DNA of 64,000 nt from Candidatus Poriferihabitaceae bacterium (GCA_965261915.1 CBDHDW010000013.1:320491-384490); one strand, 5' to 3'; numbered from the stretch's first letter, positions 3,522 to 43,798 are shown. The notes: generated by a model not told the origin, from the letters alone. A program made the numbers and translations.

Positions 3522-6500
3522 AAACAGCAGGGCTACAGCCATTTGGCACCCGAGCAGCAGGAACGGGAAAGCCCCGCCGATGTTGTTTTACAGCCACGCC
3601 TAGAAGCTGCGATTAACAAACTCAACCCCGCTATTCCCGTGTCCGCTAAAAAACAGGCATTGCGCGAGGTGTTGAATCTGCCCGGACCAAGCCTGATTGA
3701 AAGCAACCGGGAATTTCATACCATGCTGACGGATGGCGTGCGGGTGGAGTATCAGAAAAACGGCAATACGGTCGGCGGCACGGTGTGGTTGATTGATTTT
3801 TCCAATCCGCGCAATAATGATTTGCTGGTGTGTGATCAATTTACGGTCATCAGCAATAACATCAATCGCCGAGCGGATATTGTGCTATTTGTCAATGGCT
3901 TGCCGTTGGTGGTGATTGAGCTTAAAAATGCGACCGATGAAAAGGCGACGGTTAAAAAAGCCTTTACCCAACTGCAAAATTATAAAGCCGATATTCCGGC
4001 CCTGTTTTGCTACAACGGCGTGTTAGTCGCTTCCGATGGGCTGGATGCCAAAGTGGGTTCGCTGACTGCCGACTGGGACCGGTTTGTGGCTTGGAAAACC
4101 GTTGACGGCATCAAATGCGACCCCAGCAATACGCCACAAATAGAAACCCTGATTAAAGGACTGATTCGCCCCGATGTGTTGCTTGATTTGGTGAAACACT
4201 TTTCCGTGTTTGAAACCAGCGGCAAAGAAGACCCCGAAACCGGCTTGAGCAGTGTTGAAACGATTAAAAAAATCGCCGCTTATCATCAATATCATGCGGT
4301 CAATCGGGCGGTTGAGTCGACCCTCCGCGCAATTGCCGAAACGACACCAGCAAACAGGGTCAGCGAATCTCCCACCGAGTTCGGATTGGCAGACATCGAC
4401 AAGCAATCGCCCGGCGATAAAAAAGTGGGGGTGGTATGGCATACGCAAGGCAGCGGCAAGTCGCTTTCTATGCTGTTTTATGCCGGCAAGCTCATTGTCA
4501 ATGAACCATTGGGCAACCCGACTATCGTGGTGGTTACCGACCGCAACGAGCTGGATGATCAGTTATTTTCCACCTTCGCAAACAACCAGCAATTATTACG
4601 GCAGCAACCGGTACAGGCAAACAATCGCTTGCAATTAAAAGAACTTTTGAAAACCGACGGTGGCGGCATTGTATTTACCACCATTCAAAAATTTTTCCCA
4701 GAACAGCCCGACAACGAAAACTTTGAGCTGCTTTCTAAACGCAGAAATATCATTGTTATTGCTGATGAAGCGCACCGCTCGCAATACGGTTTTGGTGCCA
4801 AAACCAGCATCAAGAAGAATACCGCATCGGTAACCTACGGCTTTGCGAAATACTTGCGAGACGCATTGCCCAATGCCTCTTTTATCGGCTTCACCGGCAC
4901 ACCGATTGAAAAAGAGGATATCTCAACGCCGGCGGTTTTCGGCAACTATATTGATGTATATGATATTGAACAGGCAGTCGAAGACGGTGCAACGGTGCCT
5001 ATTTATTATGAATCGCGGCTGGTTAAACTCCATATCAGCGAAGAGGACAAGACAAAACTGGACACAGAAGTGGAGCAGATAACCGAAGGCGCGGAGTCGG
5101 ATACTACGAGAAAGGCAAAAGCAAAATGGACGCAAGTGGAGGCAATTGTCGGGCATAACGAGCGTCTGCAAACGGTTGCAAAAGATATAGTTACGCATTT
5201 TGAGGCACGTCAAGAAACGCTTGCAGGCAAAGCGATGATTGTGGCCATGAGTCGGCGAATTGCGGTTGATTTATATGCTGAAATTATCAAACTGCGCCCC
5301 AAGTGGCACGACTCCGACCGACAAAAAGGCAACCTCAAAGTCATTATGACATCCAGCACTAGCGACCCACAGGACTGGCAGGCGCACAATACCAATAAAA
5401 AAGACAGAAAAGACCTTAGCGACCGGTTCAAAGACCCAAACGATTCTCTGCAACTGGTTATCGTGCGCGATATGTGGCTGACCGGTTTTGACGCGCCTTG
5501 TCTGCATACCATGTATATCGACAAGCCGATGCGCGGGCATAATCTGATGCAGTCAATCTCTCGCGTCAACCGGATTTATAAGGACAAACCCGGTGGATTG
5601 ATTGTTGATTATATCGGCATTGCCGCAGACTTAAAAAAAGCACTCCGCACCTATACCGAAAGCGGCGGTAAGGGCGTGCCTACGCTTGACCAGTCGGCGG
5701 CGATTGCGATGTTGCTGGAAAAATACGACATCGTAATGCAAATGTTTCATGGTTTTGACTACAAACGCTATTTTACCGCCGACACCAAAGACAAACTGAC
5801 GATTATCCTCGAAGCGCAAGATCATATTCTGGGCTTGGATGACGGTAAAAACCGGTTTGCCAAAGAAGTGATTGTTTTGGGAAAAACATTTGCCCTTGCT
5901 GTGCCCTCTCCAGAAGCGATGGCGATTAGAGATGAGTTAGGATTTTTTCAAGCCATCAAGGCGCGGCTGATGAAGCTGGATTCTGGCGGCAACGGCAAAA
6001 GCGATACCGAAATAGAAACCGCAGTTAAGCAAATTATCGATAAGGCGTTAGTGGTTGGCGGGGTGATTGATATTTTTTCCGCCGCCGGCATTAAAAAACC
6101 AGATATGACGATTCTCTCAGATGAATTTATGGAAGAAATACGCGCCATGAAACATCAGAATCTGGCATTAGAATTGCTTAAAAAAATTATTGGCGATGAA
6201 ATAAAAACCAGCGCGAAAAAGAATTTCATTCAGGGTAAAAAACTGTCCGATATGCTGGATGCCGCGCTTAAACAATATCATGATAAATTGCTGACGACAG
6301 CAGAGATTATCCACCTGTTAATCGATATTGCCAAAGAAACAAAGGCGGCTGATGAGCGCGGCGAAAATTTAGGCTTAAGCGAAGACGAAATCGCTTTTTA
6401 TGACGCGCTGGCGTTTAATGAAAATGCTCAACAGGTGCTTGGCGATGATACCTTGCGAGAGATTGCCGCCATATTGGTCGAAAAAGTACGCACCGAAGCA

Positions 6501-24689: not shown

Positions 24690-25030
24690 TTGGAAAAACT
24701 GCTTATTTGCGATGGGTCTTGCCCTGCCTGAAGACTATTTCAGACCATTAACCCACAAGCCAGCCAGCGTTTTGAATGTAAATTACTATCCCTAGTCAAC
24801 TGTATGCGGCATCGATGACTGCGGCATATCCTCGTACTAAAATCCATTCCATACAGGGCGGTTTTCCGTGCGCGACTTATCAGCGTTCACGAAAAAATCT
24901 TAATGAATAGAGATACCCTTAACAGTGGATTGTTGGGATGAACAGCCGAAGTCATTGGTGATGCCCCGTGTTTCTGGTATATTCTATGGGCATCCCGCCT
25001 CGAACAACATGGATATTGACCGCCCAGGCA
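24690..25030 (+). pseudogene. Decayed 2OG-Fe(II) oxygenase, middle and C-terminal part
   Basis: Family landmarks appear in the right order across shifted frames: AMGLALPEDYF...SVLNVNYYP*, then ..HR*LRHILVLK.., ILMNRDTLNSG, and PRVSGIFYGHP. There are several stops and frameshifts. Confidence 0.4.
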
Positions 25031-25040
25031 TAAACCAAAC

Positions 25041-26888
25041 ATGCAAAACCTATTGGAACAATTAAAAACCACGCTACAAAATGATGAGCGGCTGGTCGTC
25101 GATGGTAATTTGGTGAAAAATAAAATCGTTGAGCTGGCACTGGCGATGGATGCGGGATTGCTTGCCTTGTTGCTGGGTAATGAGACCATCAAAAAACAGT
25201 TTTTTAAGCAGGTCGGCGGTGTGCTGGTGTTTGACAAGGTGGCGTTGCAAAGTTTTGTCAGCAACAAACAGTTTCTGCCCGATAGCTATACCGCCTTCAA
25301 GAACAAAATCGGCTTAACGGCAAATGGCGAATATTTAACCGAAAGCCGAGAGGTGGTTTTAGCCTGGCCTTATAAAGATTGTACGCTGGAAGGCGGGCAG
25401 ACTAAAGAGGAGCAGAAACGCAAAGAGATATTCTGGAATGAAACGCTGGCAGCGGATGAGATTGACCGCTTGCTTGACCCGAAGGTATTAACCCATTTCA
25501 AAAAATACGATAAAGACGGCGCGCATAAAGCAGCGCATATCAGCCTTGATGATAACCTGATTATCAAGGGCAATAACCTGCTGGCACTGCATAGCCTGAA
25601 AAAGCAATATGCCGGCAAGGTCAAGCTGATTTATATTGATCCGCCTTATAATACCGGTTCAGATAGTTTTGGTTATAACGACAGTTTTAATCATTCTACC
25701 TGGTTGACTTTTATGCGGAATAGATTGGAAGTTTCAAGGGAATTATTGAGAGGTGATGGGGTTATTTTTGTTCAATGTGATGATAATGAACAGGCTTATC
25801 TGAAGGTGTTGATGGATGAGGTTTTTGGGCGGAAAAATTTTGTTGCGGATTTTATATGGCATCATAGAAAATCATCTCAAAACGATATAGATGTTTCTTT
25901 ATCACATAATTACACACTAACATTTGCAAAAAACAGAAAAAATTTTAAACTAAATATATTGGGAATTGATGGTAATAAATTTTCTAATTTAGATGATGAT
26001 CCCAGAGGCGATTGGGTTGCCGATCCTTTTGACGCACCAAATATTAGAAAAAATTTATCTTATGAGATTACCAACCCAAATACACATAAAATTTATTTAC
26101 CTCCAAAAGGTAGGTGTTGGCGTATGTCAAAAGATAAATACGAACATGCACTAAAAGATAATAGGATTATTTTTGGAAAATCTGGAAAAACAAAACCACA
26201 ATATAAGCGTTTTAAAGATGAAGCAGAAGAAAAAGGACGAAATGCTTATACTATTTGGAATGACACAGGCACAGCAACAGAAGGTACAAAAGAATTAATG
26301 AAGTTATTTGATGACAGAAAATTTACCACACCAAAACCTGAGAAACTTCTACAGAGAATAATAGAAATATCTACAAAAGAAAGCGACATCGTCCTAGACT
26401 ATCACTTAGGCAGTGGCACCACCTGTGCCGTAGCCCATAAAATGGGACGACGTTATATTGGTATTGAACAAATGGATTACATCCACGATGTGACCTGCGA
26501 ACGACTTAAAAAAGTTATTCAGGGCGAACAAGGCGGCATCAGTAAAAGCGTCAACTGGCAAGGTGGCGACTCCTTCACCTACTGCGAACTTGCCCAACAC
26601 AATGCTAATATCATCGATAAAATCGAACAAGCAAAAACGACTCAAGCCTTAACAGAAATCTGGCAAGAAATAGAAAATGCCGATTTTATCAGCTACAAAA
26701 TAAAACCCGAAGTCATCAATAAAAACATTCATGAATTTGCCGCCCTCTCCGTAGCAGAACAAAAACAATTCCTGATTGCCGTGCTGGATAAAAACCAGCT
26801 TTATGTTAATTATTCTGAAATTGATGATGTGGATTATCAAATATCGAATGAAGATAAAGCACTAAACAGGCAGTTTTATGGGGGTTAA
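25041..26888 (+). CDS. mod: Type III R-M DNA methyltransferase (Mod), N6-adenine beta class
   Basis: DPPY motif IV within LIYIDPPYNTGSD (nt 25638-25649), followed by an AT-rich variable TRD. Motif I is DYHLGSGTT. The N- and C-terminal regions are typical of Mod proteins. Confidence 0.92.
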   Translation: MQNLLEQLKTTLQNDERLVVDGNLVKNKIVELALAMDAGLLALLLGNETIKKQFFKQVGGVLVFDKVALQSFVSNKQFLPDSYTAFKNKIGLTANGEYLTESREVVLAWPYKDCTLEGGQTKEEQKRKEIFWNETLAADEIDRLLDPKVLTHFKKYDKDGAHKAAHISLDDNLIIKGNNLLALHSLKKQYAGKVKLIYIDPPYNTGSDSFGYNDSFNHSTWLTFMRNRLEVSRELLRGDGVIFVQCDDNEQAYLKVLMDEVFGRKNFVADFIWHHRKSSQNDIDVSLSHNYTLTFAKNRKNFKLNILGIDGNKFSNLDDDPRGDWVADPFDAPNIRKNLSYEITNPNTHKIYLPPKGRCWRMSKDKYEHALKDNRIIFGKSGKTKPQYKRFKDEAEEKGRNAYTIWNDTGTATEGTKELMKLFDDRKFTTPKPEKLLQRIIEISTKESDIVLDYHLGSGTTCAVAHKMGRRYIGIEQMDYIHDVTCERLKKVIQGEQGGISKSVNWQGGDSFTYCELAQHNANIIDKIEQAKTTQALTEIWQEIENADFISYKIKPEVINKNIHEFAALSVAEQKQFLIAVLDKNQLYVNYSEIDDVDYQISNEDKALNRQFYGG

Positions 26889-26889
26889 T

Positions 26890-28056
26890 ATGATCGAGAA
26901 AATAACAGACCTGCATTTTAAGGCAACAGATTTGGGGGTCATAAGAAGCGGTGAGTTTACGCAGAAACCTTTAACTATTTTCTGTGGACCCAATAATAGT
27001 GGTAAAACCTGGGCAATGTATTCGCTGTATCGCTTTTACCAGACTTCTGAAGCAGCTAGATGGCTGGATAAAGAAGGAAAAGAAAAAGTTTCTTTAGATA
27101 AATTTAACCGCAGAATGTCATCCAGCCTTGACCGTTTATTCAACACTTCGGTAGAAAGCATTCGTAATGCCAAATTTGAGCTTAAAATGGAGACTGCTGA
27201 TTGGGAAGAATTGCGCGAAAATAAACAGAATGATGTTTTCCTTATGCCGGCCGAACGTAATGGCTTGCATTTGTTTTTTCGTGAATTAAGTACTCGTCGC
27301 ACCGCGCTGTTACATCACGCATCTAAAGATAACATTGATATAAATGAACTGTTACGCGATGTTATCAGGTCACGCTACGCCGTTCCAATTGCAAAATATA
27401 TTGACTGGCTGAATAATATGACCGATGCACCAAAATCAAAATCAGCAGATTTTCACGATTATGCACAACAGTTACAAAAAACATTGGCAGGAGGCGTTTA
27501 TAAAATCGATTCCCGAACCGGGGATATCGCCTTTAAGCCCTATCAACGAAAACGTGACGGGGTTAAAACGGAAGCACTGGGCTTACATATCACTTCCAGC
27601 ACGGTTAAAAGTTTATTCGGATTGTGGTTTTATCTGGAGTATCAGGCGGAGAAGGGCGATGTCTTGATGATTGATGAACCCGAGCTAAATATACACCCGG
27701 AGAATCAACGTAAGATAGCGCGTTTATTAGCTCAACTGGTCAATGCGGGCTTAAATGTGGTGATTAGCACCCATAGCGATTATATGGTGCGCGAATTTAA
27801 TTCACTGATTATGCTTAGTCAGGATGAAGATAAAGTATTACGAGAAAAACACCAATACGCCGATAATGAAATACTAACCACCGCACAGGTCGGTGCCTAT
27901 CTATTTGATAAGCAGGAAATTAAACCTTTTGAAATAACAGCAGATGATGGCATTTATGCCACCACGTTTGATGAGGTAATTCGTAAGCTGAACGATACCA
28001 ACGATGACATCTATTACAGCCTGCAGGACAAGAAAGATGAATCAGAAGCTGGCTGA
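26890..28056 (+). CDS. ABC/AAA_15-21-type ATPase embedded between mod and res
   Basis: Walker A GPNNSGKT (26986-27009), Walker B VLMIDEPELNIHP (27661-), and H-loop VISTHSDY. ATG 26890 has GGGGG 5 nt upstream and lies 1 nt after the mod stop. Confidence 0.85.
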   Translation: MIEKITDLHFKATDLGVIRSGEFTQKPLTIFCGPNNSGKTWAMYSLYRFYQTSEAARWLDKEGKEKVSLDKFNRRMSSSLDRLFNTSVESIRNAKFELKMETADWEELRENKQNDVFLMPAERNGLHLFFRELSTRRTALLHHASKDNIDINELLRDVIRSRYAVPIAKYIDWLNNMTDAPKSKSADFHDYAQQLQKTLAGGVYKIDSRTGDIAFKPYQRKRDGVKTEALGLHITSSTVKSLFGLWFYLEYQAEKGDVLMIDEPELNIHPENQRKIARLLAQLVNAGLNVVISTHSDYMVREFNSLIMLSQDEDKVLREKHQYADNEILTTAQVGAYLFDKQEIKPFEITADDGIYATTFDEVIRKLNDTNDDIYYSLQDKKDESEAG

Positions 28057-28573
28057 ATTATTTCAACAAACCATTCATAAAACCCTGCAATTAAACAGAA
28101 AAGGCAGAGACTGGTCGCTCAATGAAGAGCCTACAATAAGAATAAAGGCACCCTGTCGATATTCACTTGGTTTTAGTCTGGACTGTGAACAATATGGTTC
28201 TCTTTTTGGAGGCAACGCACCATTAGATATTGCCAAAATGTGTGATGCGATTATTGTATTGTCCTGTAAAAACAAGGATTATATCTTTGTGATCGAACAA
28301 AAAACCAGATACAAAGATGGTTATAAAAAACAATTAGCCAACGGTAAATATTTTTGTGACTGGCTACTAGCGTTGCTAAAAGAACACAATCACTATAACG
28401 GAAAAGTCGTTTTTATTGGACTGCTGTGCTGGTTACCTCGGGAAAAGTCTTTGCGTAAAGGGGAGACTCGTCATGGAAACTATGTAGAAAAACAGAACAA
28501 CGAAACCCAGTGTGATTTGTTATTTGAGATAAGAAATGAAGCTCACATTTATCTGCAAAAGATCATCAAATGA
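28037..28573 (+). CDS. Small orphan protein with a PD-(D/E)xK-like signature
   Basis: 178 aa from ATG 28037. D70 sits in MCDAIIVL and E87-Q-K89 in YIFVIEQKT, followed by a long helix and a hydrophobic strand (VVFIGLLCW). It overlaps the ATPase stop by 20 nt and the res start by ATGA. Confidence 0.6.
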   Translation: MNQKLAELFQQTIHKTLQLNRKGRDWSLNEEPTIRIKAPCRYSLGFSLDCEQYGSLFGGNAPLDIAKMCDAIIVLSCKNKDYIFVIEQKTRYKDGYKKQLANGKYFCDWLLALLKEHNHYNGKVVFIGLLCWLPREKSLRKGETRHGNYVEKQNNETQCDLLFEIRNEAHIYLQKIIK

Positions 28574-31203
28574 CTGAACAAATGCTCCACGAAAAACTAA
28601 CCACTGGCGAAGAGTTTTTAGTTGGCAGTGATTATTATAAACAGCATATCCCCGATGGCATCGCCAGCAATCTCAATCCTGATTTTCTGTTGCGACCCTA
28701 CCAGATGGAAGCCTTGGGTCGTTTCAAGTATTACCTGGAGACTTATCCCGCGCGCCCGAAAAACGTGCCGACACAAACCTTGTTTCACATGGCAACGGGT
28801 AGCGGTAAAACGCTGATTATGGCGGGGCTGATGTTGTATTTATACAAGCAGGGCTATCGCAATTTTCTGTTTTTTGTCAATAGCACCAATATCATCAATA
28901 AAACCCGTGATAACTTCCTCAATAAGACGGCTACAAAACACCTGTTTGCGGAAGTGATACAAATCGATAACCAACCGATACACATTAAAGAAGTCGATAA
29001 TTTTCAGGCGGCGAATGCGAATGATATAAATATTGTTTTTTCAACCATTCAGGGCTTGCATACGCGTCTGAATACGCCGCGAGAAAACAGCATCACCTTT
29101 GATGACTTTGAAAGTGAAAAAATCGTTCTTATTTCTGACGAAGCGCATCACATTAATGTAGAGACGAGGCGGACTAACACGCTTAATCAAACAGAATTGT
29201 TTGCATTGAATACTTGGGAATCCACGGTTGAGAAGATATTCATCGCTAACGCTGAAAATATTCTGCTGGAATTTACCGCTACTATGGACTTAAACCATCA
29301 ACAAATTATTGAAAAATATCGCGATAAAATCATTTTTGACTATCCGCTCAAGGCGTTTCGGATGGATGGCTATTCCAAAGAAGTCAAGGTATTGCAATCG
29401 GACACCGAGGCGTTTGAGCGGGCTTTACAAGCCATTTTATTAAGCCAGTTCAGGCGGAAAATATTTGAAAAACACGGTTGGTTGATAAAACCAGTTATTT
29501 TATTCAAGTCAAAAACAATTAAGGAATCTAATGCCTTTTATGCTGAATTTATTTCCCGAATAAGGCACTTACAAGGACATGATCTTGAAAAAATTGCCGG
29601 CAATCCTAATCTGGATGCTGTTTTAGCCGGGGTGTTTCGCTATTTTGCAGCGCATAAAATTACGCTGGACAATCTGGCTTTGGAATTACAGGAAGAGTTT
29701 GCCGAAAACAAATGTATCTCGGTCAATTCCAAAGATGAATCAGTGCAGAAACAGATTGCAGTCAACACATTGGAAGACAGGGACAACGAATACCGTGCTA
29801 TTTTCGCGGTCGATAAACTGAACGAAGGCTGGGATGTGCTTAATCTGTTTGATATTGTGCGTTTATACGATACGCGCGATGGGAAATCCGGCAGGCCGGG
29901 CAAAACCACCTTGTCGGAGGCACAGTTAATCGGGCGCGGGGCGCGATATTGCCCGTTCAGGGTGGCCGATGACCAACCGCTTTATCAGCGTAAATATGAT
30001 GTTTTTAACAATGACAAAGAGCATAACTTAAAGCTATGCGAGGAGCTGTATTATCACAGTGCTTATAACCCACGCTATATTCAAGAATTACACACGGCTT
30101 TAGTAGAAATCGGCATTAAACAGAACAGTAGCCGTCAGTTAGAATTAACCCTAAAGCCAGCGTTCAAAGAGAAGTCGTTTTATAAGAAGGGCGTTATTCT
30201 CAAAAATGAACGGGTGAAATATGCACGCGAGGACGTAACGGGCATCCCCGCTTCATTTATTCAAACCACACATAAAATCCCATTGCCATCGGGTTATTCA
30301 CAATCGTCAACGGTATTTGCGTTTGAACCACAGCGACAGGGCAACCAAATACAGCAAGATTATTGCATTAAATCATTTGGCTGCCACGTTATAAAAAAGG
30401 CATTGTGCCGATTCCCCGAATACCGCTTGGCAAATCTAAAATGCCTGTTTCCACATTTGCCAAGCCTGTCAGAATTTATTGACTCTGATGACTATCTGGG
30501 AAGAGTCAAAGCCGAGGTTAGCGGCGATGAGGATGCCGTGAACAATCTAAGCCAAGCGAACAAGCTGTATATTGTTGTCTGTTTGCTGGATAGATTAAGC
30601 TGCCAATTACAGGCGGAAAAAGTGGACTATAAAGGCACGAAAGAATTTAAACCTTATCCAATCAAAGACACTTTCACCGATAAAACACTTAATGTTGTCA
30701 ATGATGGCAGTGCTGATAAAGAATATGGTATTGCACAAAGCCAAACAACGAATAAGAATTTAAATATGGATTTATCCGCTCAGGATTGGTTTGTATTTAA
30801 CGAGCACTACGGAACTTCTGAGGAAAAGTATCTGGTCAAATATATTGAAAAGATAGTGCATCGATTAAAGCAAACCTATTCAGAGGTTTATTTGCTACGC
30901 AATGAGCGCCATTTCAAACTGTTCAATTTTGATGACGGACGTGCGTTTGAGCCCGATTTTGTGCTGTGTTTAATCAAGAATAATAAAACCCCTGCCCAGC
31001 ATTACCAAATAATTATTGAGCCAAAAGGTAGCCATTTAATCGAGCATGATCAATGGAAGCAAGATTTTTTATTGCAGTTAAAAGATGGGCATAAGATCGA
31101 ACAGTTATGGAAAGATAGAAACCACATAGTTTGGGGTATGCCGTTTTATAATGAAACAGAAACCAAAGCCGAGTTTGAGAAAGAGTTTGCTACTTTGGTT
31201 TAA
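28570..31203 (+). CDS. res: Type III restriction enzyme Res subunit (helicase plus C-terminal endonuclease)
   Basis: ATGSGKTLIMAG (motif I), LISDEAHH (DEAH), and later helicase motifs (QLIGRGAR). The C-terminal nuclease motif is FEPDFVL...IIIEPKG. Confidence 0.92.
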   Translation: MTEQMLHEKLTTGEEFLVGSDYYKQHIPDGIASNLNPDFLLRPYQMEALGRFKYYLETYPARPKNVPTQTLFHMATGSGKTLIMAGLMLYLYKQGYRNFLFFVNSTNIINKTRDNFLNKTATKHLFAEVIQIDNQPIHIKEVDNFQAANANDINIVFSTIQGLHTRLNTPRENSITFDDFESEKIVLISDEAHHINVETRRTNTLNQTELFALNTWESTVEKIFIANAENILLEFTATMDLNHQQIIEKYRDKIIFDYPLKAFRMDGYSKEVKVLQSDTEAFERALQAILLSQFRRKIFEKHGWLIKPVILFKSKTIKESNAFYAEFISRIRHLQGHDLEKIAGNPNLDAVLAGVFRYFAAHKITLDNLALELQEEFAENKCISVNSKDESVQKQIAVNTLEDRDNEYRAIFAVDKLNEGWDVLNLFDIVRLYDTRDGKSGRPGKTTLSEAQLIGRGARYCPFRVADDQPLYQRKYDVFNNDKEHNLKLCEELYYHSAYNPRYIQELHTALVEIGIKQNSSRQLELTLKPAFKEKSFYKKGVILKNERVKYAREDVTGIPASFIQTTHKIPLPSGYSQSSTVFAFEPQRQGNQIQQDYCIKSFGCHVIKKALCRFPEYRLANLKCLFPHLPSLSEFIDSDDYLGRVKAEVSGDEDAVNNLSQANKLYIVVCLLDRLSCQLQAEKVDYKGTKEFKPYPIKDTFTDKTLNVVNDGSADKEYGIAQSQTTNKNLNMDLSAQDWFVFNEHYGTSEEKYLVKYIEKIVHRLKQTYSEVYLLRNERHFKLFNFDDGRAFEPDFVLCLIKNNKTPAQHYQIIIEPKGSHLIEHDQWKQDFLLQLKDGHKIEQLWKDRNHIVWGMPFYNETETKAEFEKEFATLV

Positions 31204-31210
31204 GGTGGAA

Positions 31211-31270
31211 CCTTTGCACAGTCTGAGATTTTGTTTGCTAGAGCAGGGAAAGTCACACGGGAATGACGGG
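31211..31270. repeat. REP-like family member (ttgcacagtct ... gggaatgacg)
   Basis: tttgcacagtctgag...cacacgggaatgacggg shares both sub-motifs with 39737-39768 (cttgcacagtctcttccgcaggaatgacgaatg). Confidence 0.6.
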
Positions 31271-31296
31271 TTGGAACGATACGCCCTTTTCTGAGA

Positions 31297-31441
31297 ATGT
31301 TTATTAATGGCACAGGTGAAAACCGGAAATGCATTGCAAACCAAACAATTCAGGCCTGTGAAAATGACGGTTTCTTTTATATTGCTAATCATGGGATCGA
31401 GGAAGAATTGTTTGTCCAGAGGCGTAATTCAGCACTGTCAT
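31297..31441 (+). pseudogene. 2OG-Fe(II) oxygenase N-terminal fragment, cut by the IS1634-family element
   Basis: IANQTIQACENDGFFYIANHGIEEELF is the DIOX_N-type signature (..AC...GFFY..NHGI). Homology stops at the IS terminal repeat at 31442. Confidence 0.6.
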
Positions 31442-31541
31442 TCCTGACTTCGACGGTTCACACTCATAACTCATTGATTTATAAGGAAACACAAAAATAC
31501 CTAGGCACTACAAATGCCCAGATATTGAAGAATTATGTCAA

Positions 31542-32609
31542 TTAGTACAGTGGGTAAGCTGTGGTAATCGCTTTTAATCCCATCACAGCATAGATTTTTT
31601 TTGCCTCTGGATTGATTTGAGAAGGCATGACATAACGCTGTTTGGTGCGCTTGTGTTTGAACACGCTATGTTGCACATGAATCAAGGCATTACGAATAAC
31701 TTCAGGGGATAAGGCTTTGTGTTGTAGCTTGATTCGATACATTAGCTGTCTGATGCAGGCAAAAGCCATGAACGAAATAGCAATGTGGGCACGCACCCTG
31801 GAAGGTGTCCAGTGGTAGATAGGGCGTACTTTTAAGTCATGTTTAGTGATGCGGAAACTTTCTTCAACCTGCCATAAGCCGCGATAGTGTGATAGCACTT
31901 CCTGATGCGGCGTATCTGGCAAATTGGTGATGACCCCATGCAAGCCGTCCCAGCGGCTTTCGGCATCAATTTTATCCTGGTTGATACTCAGGCTGGTTTT
32001 TCCTTTGATAATCAGAAACTTTTTATAGCCGTAGTTATTTAATAAGTCCTTGGGATTCTGGCTTTTACCTATTTTCTTGATGAGCCGATCGACTGCCTTT
32101 TGTCGGTCATGTTGATCTTTATCCGCACGCTTTGGACAATGCGAGACAATGAGCCGTCTCTTCTTGTGCGTCAGCTCGGCTGCGCTTGACCCGCCTTTGC
32201 CAAGTGCCTGATAAGCTGATTTATCCAATACTTTGGTTTGTAGTGCACTTGGTAATTGTTTTAGTTTCGCTCCGACAATGTAATAAGCGCCCGCCTCATC
32301 CAGGGCGCTTAGATTGTCTTCATTCAACATGCCCCGATCAGCGACAAAGATCATTTTCCTAACATCATAGCGCGCTTGCATCGTCTGCAAAACGCTGATT
32401 AGGCTATGACCCTCGAAAGTAGCACCGGGAAACACTTCGTAGCCGACCGGCAGACCTTCGCGGGTGACCAGCAAAGCCAGCAATACTTGCGGCTGATTGA
32501 CCTGTGTCTGATTAACTTGACAGTCCTTGCTGTAGCCATTTTGTTTTAATTCGTCTTCCTTGAAAGACTCAAAATACAGTGTCGTACAGTCAAAGAACAA
32601 CACATCTAA
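31542..32609 (-). pseudogene. IS1634-family transposase, C-terminal part (interrupted)
   Basis: DVLFFDCTTLYFESFKEDEL... carries the DDE region. The first 13 codons of the ORF-track ORF (32610-32648) are IS630 terminal sequence. Confidence 0.85.
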
Positions 32610-33768
32610 TACCAACGGCCCAAGGATTTGACACTTTGTGCTTTCCACGGGGAATTTGAAGTGATTCAGTAGTTATCATCATAGGAGGTATTGATGACAG
32701 TAGAGATTATGCGAACGGACAAGTCGGCCTGCGATCTTCGGCGCGCCGCAGCGGCGTGCAGGGACGCGAAAGCGGCCCGACGGATGCTGGCGATTGCGTT
32801 GATTTTGGACGGCACTGACCGCAAGACGGCGGCCGAGAACTGCGGGATGGATCGCCAGACGTTGCGTGACTGGGTACACCGTTACAATGACACGGGGATT
32901 GAGGGTCTCTCGAACCGGCGTTCGCCAGGACGACAGCCCCTGCTCAGCGTGGCACAGAAGGCGGAGTTGGCATCGCTTGTGCGTGAGAGGCCGGATCCCG
33001 AAACGGACGGCGTGGTGCGCTGGCGGCGCATTGACCTCAAGCGCAAGATTGAGGAGCGCTTTGGCGTTGTCATGCATGAACGGACCGTTGGCAAACAACT
33101 GGTAAAACTTGGTTTTCGACGCTTGTCTGTGCGCCCGCAGCATCCGAAATCCGACCCGGATGCGCAGGATGCGTTTAAAAAAACTTCGCTGCAGAGGTAG
33201 CGGCCGTTCTGCCCAAAACGGCCTGCGGCAAACCATTGGAGATTTGGTTTCAGGACGAAGCTCGTGTGGGTCAGCAAGGGACGCTGACACGTATATGGGC
33301 CGAACGGGGAACCCGGCCGCGTGCGCCGCGTGATACACGTTATACGTCGGGCTATATCTTCGGCGCGGTTTGTCCCGAACGCGCCGAGGCTGCTGCGCTG
33401 ATCATGCCGCATGCGGACACGTCCGCTATGAATGCACATCTGTGCGAGATCGCCAGGACGGTCGCGGCAGGTGCCCATGCCTTGCTCATCCTCGACGGTG
33501 CAGGCTGGCACGGATCAGCAAAACTGGAAGTGCCAGACAACATCACCCTGCTCAAACTCCCGCCCTATGCGCCAGAACTCAATCCGATGGAAAACGTTTG
33601 GGCCTACCTGCGCGCCAACAAGCTGGCAATCTCTGTGTTTGAATCCTACGATGAGATCGTCGACAAATGCTGCGATGCCTGGAATTTCTTCGCAGAGGAC
33701 AAACAGGCAATCGCATCAATCACATCACGTAATTGGGCCAAAACAGTCAATCAATAGAGCCGTTGGTA
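32610..33768 (+). mobile_element. IS630-family element (1159 bp)
   Basis: Terminal inverted repeats are TACCAACGGC (32610-32619) and GCCGTTGGTA (33759-33768), flanked by TAA/TAA (32607-32609, 33769-33771). It is markedly more GC-rich than its surroundings. Confidence 0.85.
32691..33757 (+). CDS. IS630-family transposase, two frames joined by a probable -1 frameshift
   Basis: orfA (HTH: DGTDRKTAAENCGMDRQTLRDWVHRYN) ends at 33200. orfB (IWFQDEARVGQQG...LPPYAPELNPMENVW, DDE) is in the -1 frame. An A7 run at 33177-33183 is a candidate slippery site. Confidence 0.8.
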
Positions 33769-34389
33769 TAAGGCACCAGATAACAATGATCGCGTACCTT
33801 CACAGGTCATCGCTTGCAGCCGACTGATGGTGTTATCGTCCAGCTGATCCATCATCCGATAAACTTTCTCTAAGGACAAAGAAACGCCAAAGTCCTGCTC
33901 CAGGTGCTGCACACTGCTACGCTTGCGCTTGCTTTGCTCTGGGGGATTGGCAATGCGTGCCATTACACAATGGAACAGGGCTTCATGGGAAGCACGATAC
34001 CGCCTCTGCGGCAACAGGGTATCGAACGACAACTGGCGATAGACCGCGCCATACACCTCATGGATGCCCAGCACCACACGTTGTTCTTCCACCATCTGCC
34101 TCAGATCAACATTCAAGGTGGCTTTAGACGCTTGAGCTTTTGCGGCTTTCGCTTCAATCATCTGTTTGGCGACCGCCTCAGGCGGAAACAAACCGGGCTG
34201 GTGTTGGGCTTCAAGCTTCGCCTTGACGACTTCGGCCAGCTCTTTCAATCGCACTAACTCATCGTCATCCATGGCAATGCCGATATAACGGACAATCTTT
34301 TGCTTGACCTTATCGCCGACGCGCACAGATGAGACAATCTGAACCGATTGTCTTGGGCTATTGGGTGTCGATTTAACGCGAACAAACAT
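33769..34389 (-). pseudogene. IS1634-family transposase, N-terminal part (interrupted)
   Basis: Joining ...SLLSGA + L (tta) to DVLFFDC... at 32609 restores one ~561-aa frame. Confidence 0.85.
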
Positions 34390-43723: not shown

Positions 43724-43798
43724 TGGTGGGGCGTACAGGATTCAAACCTGTGACCACCTGATTGAAAGCAGATGCTCTACCAGTTGAGCTAACGCCCC
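43724..43798 (-). tRNA. tRNA-Lys-like gene with an aberrant anticodon arm (possible pseudogene)
   Basis: Perfect 7-bp acceptor stem GGGGCGT/ACGCCCC, D arm GCTC-AACTGGTA-GAGC, T arm ACAGG-TTTGAAT-CCTGT, and encoded ACCA. The anticodon arm only pairs as ATCTG/CAGGT around an 8-nt loop CTTTCAAT. The T-loop has T where C56 is expected. Confidence 0.6.

Follow-up and report, generated by a model that had tools for sequence, protein, structure and literature searches.

Why should a Type III restriction-modification (R-M) operon carry two further genes between those for its methyltransferase (mod) and its restriction enzyme (res)? The question is raised by a locus within a 64,000-nucleotide stretch of DNA from Candidatus Poriferihabitaceae bacterium (GCA_965261915.1 CBDHDW010000013.1:320491-384490; "the window" denotes this whole stretch), in which the canonical adjacency of mod and res is replaced by an interval of 1,681 bp with two genes, encoding an ATPase (component A) and a small protein (component B). 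The original prediction, made from the sequence alone, had left this pair outside every named defence system. A PADLOC search gave a confident match to a system that already has a name, since both proteins match PD-T4-4 profiles (A, 3.4e-99; B, 5.4e-10), so neither that statement nor the supposed novelty of the cassette can be maintained; judged by homology, the pair is a member of the PD-T4-4 family in a short-insert form. In our best reading, which we consider probable, a self-sufficient PD-T4-4-type module is embedded as exchangeable cargo in an R-M operon that is itself self-sufficient.

The overall anatomy that had been described, a Type III operon interrupted by an ABC-type ATPase and a PD-(D/E)xK-like protein, agrees with the Pfam and PADLOC profiles, and re-reading of the sequence confirmed the coordinates of the four genes, their common strand and three tight junctions (Table 1). 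The mod stop codon TAA (26886-26888) is followed after 1 nt by the ATPase start codon ATG at 26890, which is preceded by a GGGGG Shine-Dalgarno-like run 5 nt upstream. An alternative start, ATG at 26878, would give a product of 392 amino acids (aa), and both starts occur among database entries. The ATPase gene ends with TGA (28054-28056) and overlaps the small gene by 20 nt, the start of the latter at 28037 being supported by the lengths of its homologues (176-182 aa); the stop codon of the small gene overlaps the start codon of res within ATGA (28570-28573). A promoter and terminator consensus scan of the block found counts inside it not above those of shuffled sequence, which is compatible with one transcript and is no demonstration of it.

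Table 1. Position and content of the four genes, the cassette slot and the block that encloses them
Feature	Position in the window	Strand	Description
mod	25041-26888	+	Type III methyltransferase gene, 615 aa
ATPase gene	26890-28056	+	PD-T4-4_A-like ABC ATPase, 388 aa
small gene	28037-28573	+	PD-T4-4_B-like small PD-(D/E)xK nuclease (predicted), 178 aa
res	28570-31203	+	Type III restriction gene, 877 aa
exchangeable cassette slot	26888-28569	+	mod stop codon to last base ahead of the res ATG
R-M + cassette block, approximate extent	24916-31290	+	homology limits and G+C composition

Component A belongs to the Pfam AAA_15 / AAA_21 family. Its top PADLOC profile by far was PD-T4-4_A (PDLC04033, 331 bits; PDLC04032, 2e-58), weaker matches being to PDC-M47A (5e-70), AriA (1e-24) and PtuA (5e-13), and distant ones to NsnB, HEC-02A, Old and GajA. 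The protein is 39% identical to the PD-T4-4 ATPase of E. coli W (E 1e-110), with a gap in the insert; for the E. coli W copy itself, the PD-T4-4 profiles give 2e-112 (A) and 1e-15 (B). Some 85 aa of insert between Walker A and the Q-loop region are missing from the window ATPase, a short form of the protein, and for this reason its alignment to PD-T4-4_A falls into two stretches. The motifs quoted earlier for Walker A (GPNNSGKT), Walker B (LMIDEPELNIHP) and the H-loop (STHS) were all recovered, and the positions G33-T40 (Walker A), D262 E263 ... H269 P270 (Walker B/D-loop) and S293-S296 (H-loop) are invariant in 20 homologues. An AlphaFold2 (AF2) model of the ATPase (predicted local distance difference test score, pLDDT, 74.6) was matched by Foldseek to the ABC ATPases PtuA, retron-Eco8, OLD and GajA, each with a probability of 1.0. 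A tblastn search of plasmids with the ATPase returned two distant matches only.

Component B, a 178-aa protein that had been called an orphan, matches three PD-T4-4_B profiles of PADLOC (PDLC04037 with the value given above, the other two at 8e-6 and 1e-4), has at least 73 database homologues and is 31% identical to PD-T4-4_B of E. coli W (BLASTP, E 2e-19); it has no match in Pfam or NCBIfam. The D...ExK pattern noted in it stood up well to comparison: K67, D70, E87 and K89 are invariant in 59 homologues, and D70, E87 and K89 are the candidate catalytic residues. In the AF2 model (pLDDT 85.5), D70 starts a strand (71-77) that forms a hairpin with the strand carrying E87 and K89 (80-89), and a long helix comes after this D70/E87-x-K89 hairpin, an arrangement known from PD-(D/E)xK enzymes. 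A Foldseek search of the model against the PDB gave sub-threshold matches only, many of them to restriction endonucleases (FokI, DdmD, Bse634I, BamHI), and no solved structure related to the protein by sequence was found. The pair thus consists of an ABC ATPase homologous to PD-T4-4_A followed, on the same strand, by a PD-T4-4_B homologue with the PD-(D/E)xK triad.

PD-T4-4 came to light in a functional selection carried out in E. coli (Vassallo et al. 2022, ECOR58; PMC9519451), where it lies in a defence hotspot of an integrative and conjugative element (ICE)-like element; cloned alone under its native promoter, it protects E. coli from phage (PMC9519451). The purified E. coli proteins form higher-order A-B complexes (10.1101/2025.07.10.664194). 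The E. coli W pair occupies a P2-like prophage hotspot by itself.

The genes on either side of the pair were assigned with the same profile collections. Mod matches Pfam N6_N4_Mtase (PF01555, 2.7e-51) and TypeIII_RM_meth (PF12564, 1.7e-23) as well as PADLOC MTase_III (E 1e-193). It belongs to the beta class of N6-adenine methyltransferases, has DPPY and FxGxG-type motifs, and carries a central target-recognition region encoded at ∼25650-26535. Res matches Pfam ResIII (PF04851, 7.4e-29) and, over residues 24-874, PADLOC REase_III (5.5e-140), and the database entry for an identical protein carries precomputed HI_1054 domains. The superfamily 2 (SF2) helicase motifs I, II and VI can be read in its translation (ATGSGKT, DEAH and QLIGRGARY), as can a C-terminal PD...ExK endonuclease motif of its own (FEPDF...IIIEPKG). 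Since both proteins have the canonical domains, and Res contains the helicase motifs together with its own nuclease motif, the Type III R-M system is complete without the middle genes. Hma was considered as the identity of these two large neighbours and was rejected because they match only the MTase_III and REase_III profiles. No tandem repeats able to make mod phase-variable were found. In relatives of this operon, two mod genes may stand in tandem (locus L002, 4270-7999) or a second mod may follow res (L039, 12548-14170).

The independence of the two parts is seen most directly in what other copies of the operon carry in the slot. Three contigs of one metagenome (L082, L083 and L084) have the mod/res backbone of the window, with 97% nucleotide identity up to 26887 and 95-97% from 28570, and unrelated DNA between these exact boundaries. 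Their slot holds a different pair, encoding an HTH_3 + Peptidase_M78 protein (403 aa) with weak RmrA/CapP-like matches, followed by a DUF4411 / PIN-like protein (159 aa; the gene is shortened to 105 aa in L084). In L082, this alternative cassette occupies 4310-5997 and is packed as tightly as that of the window. The HTH-M78 + DUF4411 cassette resembles a Rosmer-like toxin-antitoxin-type pair. In two distant plasmid relatives the slot is empty, with mod abutting res (Thioclava pTElox9), or holds a 145-aa orphan of no Pfam family (Chryseobacterium pA2BH1, L091:4507-4944). The reverse exchange is found in L002 and L003, which retain the ATPase-nuclease cassette while the central region of Mod is replaced (27-50% identity between flanks that are 92-100% identical). 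The operon therefore consists of two independently exchangeable modules, the cassette and the recognition region of Mod. Because the same backbone carries an unrelated cassette, and more distant relatives carry an orphan or nothing, the pair is better described as a swappable embedded module than as a restriction subunit, and the R-M genes would be independent of it. The arrangement, same-strand genes inside a modification system with cargo that varies among relatives, corresponds to an embedded cassette in the sense of Payne et al. 2024. A scan of metagenomes with Res yielded 5 loci only, weak or partial and uninformative on slot content. Two proteins of pA2BH1 are candidate defence genes in their own right: the 145-aa slot protein and, after a Res that is 53% identical, a 1,612-aa AAA_11/AAA_12 helicase-like protein (L091:7586-12424).

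To place the pair in a wider context, relatives of the ATPase were retrieved with two peptide patterns in a scan of one genome per species, which gave 80 loci. Neighbouring genes were identified from six-frame open reading frames (ORFs) and phmmer, with queries from several loci confirmed by Pfam and PADLOC, and a locus was taken as R-M-linked when R-M genes lay within 8 kb. The set is made up mostly of sponge-associated metagenome-assembled genomes (MAGs), apparently from few related projects, so that the proportions are descriptive and no population estimates. Component B directly follows A in 72 loci. R-M genes accompany 39 of the 80, and at 18 loci a Type III-like res stands on one side of the pair and a Type III-like mod on the other.

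Three Type III families, unrelated to one another, show this linkage, with the genes ordered mod-A-B-res, res-A-B-mod or A-B-res-mod and stop codons that often overlap the next start codon. The family of the window is represented by L002, L003 and L039; the ATPase of L039 is a long form only 51% identical to that of the window, which marks it as an independent acquisition. In the second family, res (∼1,015-1,165 aa) precedes the pair and mod (∼940 aa, PDLC03632) follows it (L014, L015, L017, L026, L033, L044, L046 and others), with A-B-res-mod at one locus (L019). The third has mod (∼1,110 aa), A, B and res (∼940-1,120 aa) with overlapping codons (L057, L059, L065, L072, L074, L078), and occurs in Parachitinimonas caeni and in MAGs of Geobacter, Malikia, Thiodictyon and Burkholderiaceae; in L057 and L059 the junctions are translationally coupled as in the window. 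At a further locus (L004), a Type IIG enzyme lies upstream of the pair. A conserved linkage of the pair to R-M genes, for which co-occurrence was to be the test, is therefore borne out.

The cassette is also found without a working partner. At 11 loci (L009, L016, L018, L021, L024, L030, L032, L034, L035, L037, L081) an intact pair lies beside fragments of res or mod, which suggests that the cassette outlasts the R-M genes as these decay. Around the 41 unlinked copies lie housekeeping genes of various kinds, with no further partner that recurs, and nine viral contigs carry the pair alone. On an ATPase distance tree, R-M-embedded and free copies are interspersed, and the A-B clades do not track the R-M families. 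ATPases 60-65% identical occur in MAGs of many phyla, many with sponge-associated names, including Dehalococcoidia, Latescibacterota, Poribacteria, Thermodesulfobacteriota, Bryobacterales and Binatia, as well as Spirochaetes, Synechococcus, and Alpha- and Gammaproteobacteria; identity of this degree across phyla implies extensive and recent horizontal transfer within sponge microbiomes, and the window probably derives from a symbiont of this kind. The autonomy of the cassette is thus indicated from two sides: PD-T4-4 works alone in E. coli and stands alone in a prophage, in viral contigs and in 41 of the 80 loci, and the pair remains intact beside fragmented R-M genes.

Variants of the cassette locus were also recorded. 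It is tandemly repeated in 2-3 copies at L044:7983-11699, where the copies sit between Type III-like res and mod, at L055:2-4793 and at L058:1-2592. Close to the cassette, further ORFs for AAA_15/21-type ATPases, distant relatives of the window ATPase (E 1e-5 to 4e-24), are present at L046:9845-11188 (between B and mod), L034:12131-13729, L005:16010-17164, L020:2-1243 and L078:2228-3544.

The R-M genes and the cassette together form a block that has moved horizontally, with limits that can be drawn approximately. Its G+C content is 0.375-0.42, compared to ∼0.45-0.50 in the flanks, and homology with L002, L003 and L082-L084 ends between 24839 and 25025 on the left and between 31217 and 31592 on the right. 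The block occupies different chromosomal sites in L082/L083, in L084 and in the window. A search for terminal repeats of 11 bp or more, direct or inverted, found none that bound it.

Taken as a PD-T4-4-type module carried inside a Type III R-M operon, the locus would combine two defence systems. The first would be a classical Type III system of Mod and Res, in which host DNA would be marked by hemimethylation and unmodified DNA would be cut by Res with its own helicase and PD-ExK nuclease. The second, a PD-T4-4-family module placed exactly between mod and res, would by family analogy involve dimerisation of the ATPase, which would hold the small nuclease in a complex and act, in dependence on ATP, as its sensor or switch. 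Once activated by a phage cue, component B would cut nucleic acid and the infection would be stopped; the target may be RNA, in line with the proposal made for WonAB, a relative, and infection would probably be abortive. The cassette is probably co-transcribed from the mod promoter, and so is probably co-expressed with the R-M genes; it is certainly co-inherited with them. It would spread together with these genes, with recombination in the conserved flanks of mod and res as the means by which cargo is exchanged. This reading builds on the observed homology, motifs, exact cassette boundaries, alternative cargo and recurrent Type III linkage.

Several points weigh against it. The linkage to Type III R-M goes beyond simple chance and hints at a functional coupling that independent cargo does not explain. 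The counts among the 80 loci are not independent events, since sponge-associated MAGs of few projects dominate. The PD-(D/E)xK nuclease fold of component B is predicted from its conserved motifs and from the annotation of its family. None of 11 DNA substrates was cut in vitro by E. coli PD-T4-4 (10.1101/2025.07.10.664194), for which its authors suggest that the viral cue was missing or that the target is RNA. Finally, phage resistance conferred by the pair alone has been shown for the E. coli system only, and for the short-insert form it would follow by analogy.

The linkage just mentioned is what would be expected if the pair were a guard of the R-M enzyme in the manner of PrrC, tied to the Type III enzyme, silenced by or monitoring Mod and Res, and firing once that enzyme is put out of action by an anti-restriction factor of a phage. 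Embedding that recurs in several gene orders and in three Type III families that are unrelated, with Type III R-M as the sole recurrent partner found, speaks for such a role, as do the translationally coupled junctions in the window, L057 and L059. There are precedents in PrrC within EcoprrI (PMC12707154) and in PARIS, which has a related ABC ATPase (PMC11464382). The alternative cargo, an HTH-M78 peptidase resembling RmrA/CapP with a PIN-like DUF4411 protein, also looks like a toxin-type back-up, and the space between mod and res could on this account be a dedicated, exchangeable "guard slot" for abortive back-up modules, whether PD-T4-4-like or HTH-M78/PIN-like. We nevertheless regard the guard role as unlikely, and a dedicated slot as equally doubtful, since PD-T4-4 defends without an R-M partner (PMC9519451), R-M genes are missing from the neighbourhood of about half of the relatives, every prophage copy among them, and the A-B clades do not follow the R-M families on the tree, L039 being an independent acquisition.

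A closer bond still had been proposed in the original prediction as a four-component restriction complex. In an obligate form of it, the ATPase and small protein would be needed for methylation or cleavage, like MtsA/MtsB in MANTIS/Gao_RL. Four tightly packed genes on one strand are in keeping with this, the arrangement is kept in L002, L003 and L039 and, in another family, in L057, L059, L074 and L078, and the MANTIS ATPase and small co-regulator are essential to a Type III-like hemimethylating system (10.64898/2026.09.23.753747). An obligate system of this type is, however, very improbable. Near-identical mod/res pairs carry an unrelated cassette and canonical relatives carry none; Res and Mod hold every canonical motif, including the nuclease motif of Res; A and B are found alone in E. 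coli W and work alone (PMC9519451); and there is no homology to MANTIS parts, Res being no phospholipase D (PLD) enzyme and the ATPase no AAA+ DUF499 protein. At the other extreme, the slot might act as a passive genomic sink, an idea discussed by Payne et al. (10.1101/2024.01.29.577857), which merely tolerates insertions, with the linkage reflecting co-transfer of one ancestral block among sponge symbionts. The foreign G+C of the whole block, its position beside insertion sequence (IS) elements and the rampant transfer implied by 60-65% ATPase identity across many sponge-MAG phyla would be in line with this view. We give it very little weight, because the unrelated R-M families number at least three and the architectures at least five, some in non-sponge Betaproteobacteria and Geobacter, which requires several independent insertions, and because same-strand orientation and codon-overlapping junctions have been maintained. 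What agrees with the data is the other proposal made at the outset, that of a sensor-effector pair hitch-hiking on the R-M operon, now recognizable as an exchangeable, self-standing PD-T4-4 module; that it senses anti-restriction is a further hypothesis.

The PD-T4-4 family and the embedding of ABC-ATPase pairs in modification systems were already known (10.1101/2024.01.29.577857); newly documented here are a short-insert family member, its embedding in a Type III system and the exchange of cassettes at exact boundaries. With this locus, Type III R-M joins Hma, BREX, DISARM and Type I systems as a host of embedded defence systems, and the mod-res gap could therefore be mined for new defence genes, such as that for the 145-aa orphan of pA2BH1. 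The recurrent nesting in Type III operons could also point to the trigger of PD-T4-4, namely factors that disable or evade Type III restriction. If the slot did hold guards, the trigger class of PD-T4-4 would be identified and a Type III counterpart of PrrC/EcoprrI found; if the linkage reflected co-transfer only, the locus would be an ordinary defence island in miniature.

Further observations concern the surroundings of the block. Directly downstream of res (window 31297-34389) lies an 82-aa gene fragment of a 2-oxoglutarate (2OG)-oxygenase (DIOX_N), next to an IS4/IS1634-like transposase gene on the minus strand, apparently split into 368-aa and 212-aa pieces. The interrupting element is of the IS630 family, with HTH + DDE_3 ORFs on the plus strand and a G+C content of 0.55, and the same copy, 98% identical, is present near the R-M block in L082 and L083. 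A metagenome contig of 4x coverage (L001:1-9501) matches the window with 99.9% identity from 26379 onward; ahead of this point, the 5' two-thirds of mod are replaced by phage-like genes (tail protein, SU10 adaptor), which creates a 378-aa hybrid ORF, a junction that is either a phage-mediated rearrangement or an assembly chimera. A tRNA gene is located on the minus strand at 43724-43798 (Rfam tRNA, 61 bits), for which ARAGORN assigns no anticodon and reports four bases ('ttca') at the anticodon position.

Among known systems, the R-M part of the locus resembles classical Type III R-M of the EcoP1I / EcoP15I type, with an HI_1054-like Res, in the domain content of Mod and Res and in the order mod before res. 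In the classical arrangement mod is directly followed by res, as in pTElox9, whereas here 1.68 kb of foreign cargo lies between them. MANTIS / Gao_RL is likewise a four-gene methylation system with an ATPase, a small protein, a methyltransferase and a helicase-nuclease, and shares a Type III-like site logic. Its parts include an AAA+ ORC/Cdc6-clade DUF499 ATPase, a DUF3870 protein and a PLD-SF2 nuclease (10.64898/2026.09.23.753747), and all four genes are required, unlike the replaceable middle pair of the window. Membership was rejected on the grounds of the ABC-type ATPase, a small protein with no Pfam match, and a Res composed of ResIII and PD-ExK domains.

PARIS (AriA/AriB) and Septu (PtuA/PtuB) have ATPases of the same ABC class, as seen in the AriA and PtuA profile matches and in the Foldseek matches to PtuA, OLD and GajA. 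PARIS, the related ABC ATPase of which was mentioned above, is by its name anti-restriction-induced (PMC11464382). The effectors differ, being TOPRIM in PARIS and HNH in Septu, compared to PD-(D/E)xK in the window, and these ATPase matches are far weaker than that to PD-T4-4. PARIS was rejected because AriA reached only 1e-24 and the small protein has no TOPRIM or AriB match, and Septu because PtuA reached only 5e-13 and the small protein has no PtuB match.

PrrC of EcoprrI and RloC share with the pair an NTPase-controlled nuclease within an R-M operon, acting as a back-up once restriction is neutralised. PrrC fires when T4 Stp inhibits the R-M enzyme (PMC12707154), and both the back-up role and the R-M embedding of PrrC/RloC have been described (PMC12707154; 10.1101/2024.01.29.577857). 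They are single polypeptides of Type I loci, and PrrC is almost exclusively embedded, whereas the Type III locus of the window encodes a pair of separate proteins, relatives of which stand alone in about half of the cases.

Same-strand cassettes inside modification-based systems are also the subject of the "guilt-by-embedding" study of Payne et al. 2024, in which the embedded cassettes were very often ABC ATPase + nuclease pairs (10.1101/2024.01.29.577857). That screen, according to the parts of the text available to us, covered Hma, BREX, DISARM and Type I R-M only, and the same parts make no mention of Type III embedding or of cassette exchange at exact boundaries (10.1101/2024.01.29.577857). 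Our literature search, whose scope excluded the ABC-ATPase survey of Krishnan et al. 2020, found no description of either. The screen was the source of PDC-M47, a PD-T4-4 relative (10.1101/2024.01.29.577857), the PDC-M47A profile of which is matched by the window ATPase at 5e-70.

WonAB of the V. cholerae WASA-1 prophage, as judged from its published description, resembles the pair in that a variant PD-(D/E)xK nuclease accompanies an ABC ATPase, and a relationship to PD-T4-4 was noted by its authors (PMC12137116). Both ATPase and nuclease residues are required, infection is aborted by a translation block with no degradation of DNA, and the system has been modelled as an ATPase dimer that binds the nuclease (PMC12137116). 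It differs from the window pair in being prophage-borne and in having other insert regions and a C-terminal extension. The closest likeness is to PD-T4-4 itself, a two-gene operon with the ABC ATPase first and the small PD-(D/E)xK protein second, often with overlapping codons. Its ATPase has ∼460-477 aa, compared to 388 aa in the short form of the window, and its usual setting is an ICE or P2-prophage hotspot, whereas the pair described here lies inside a Type III operon.

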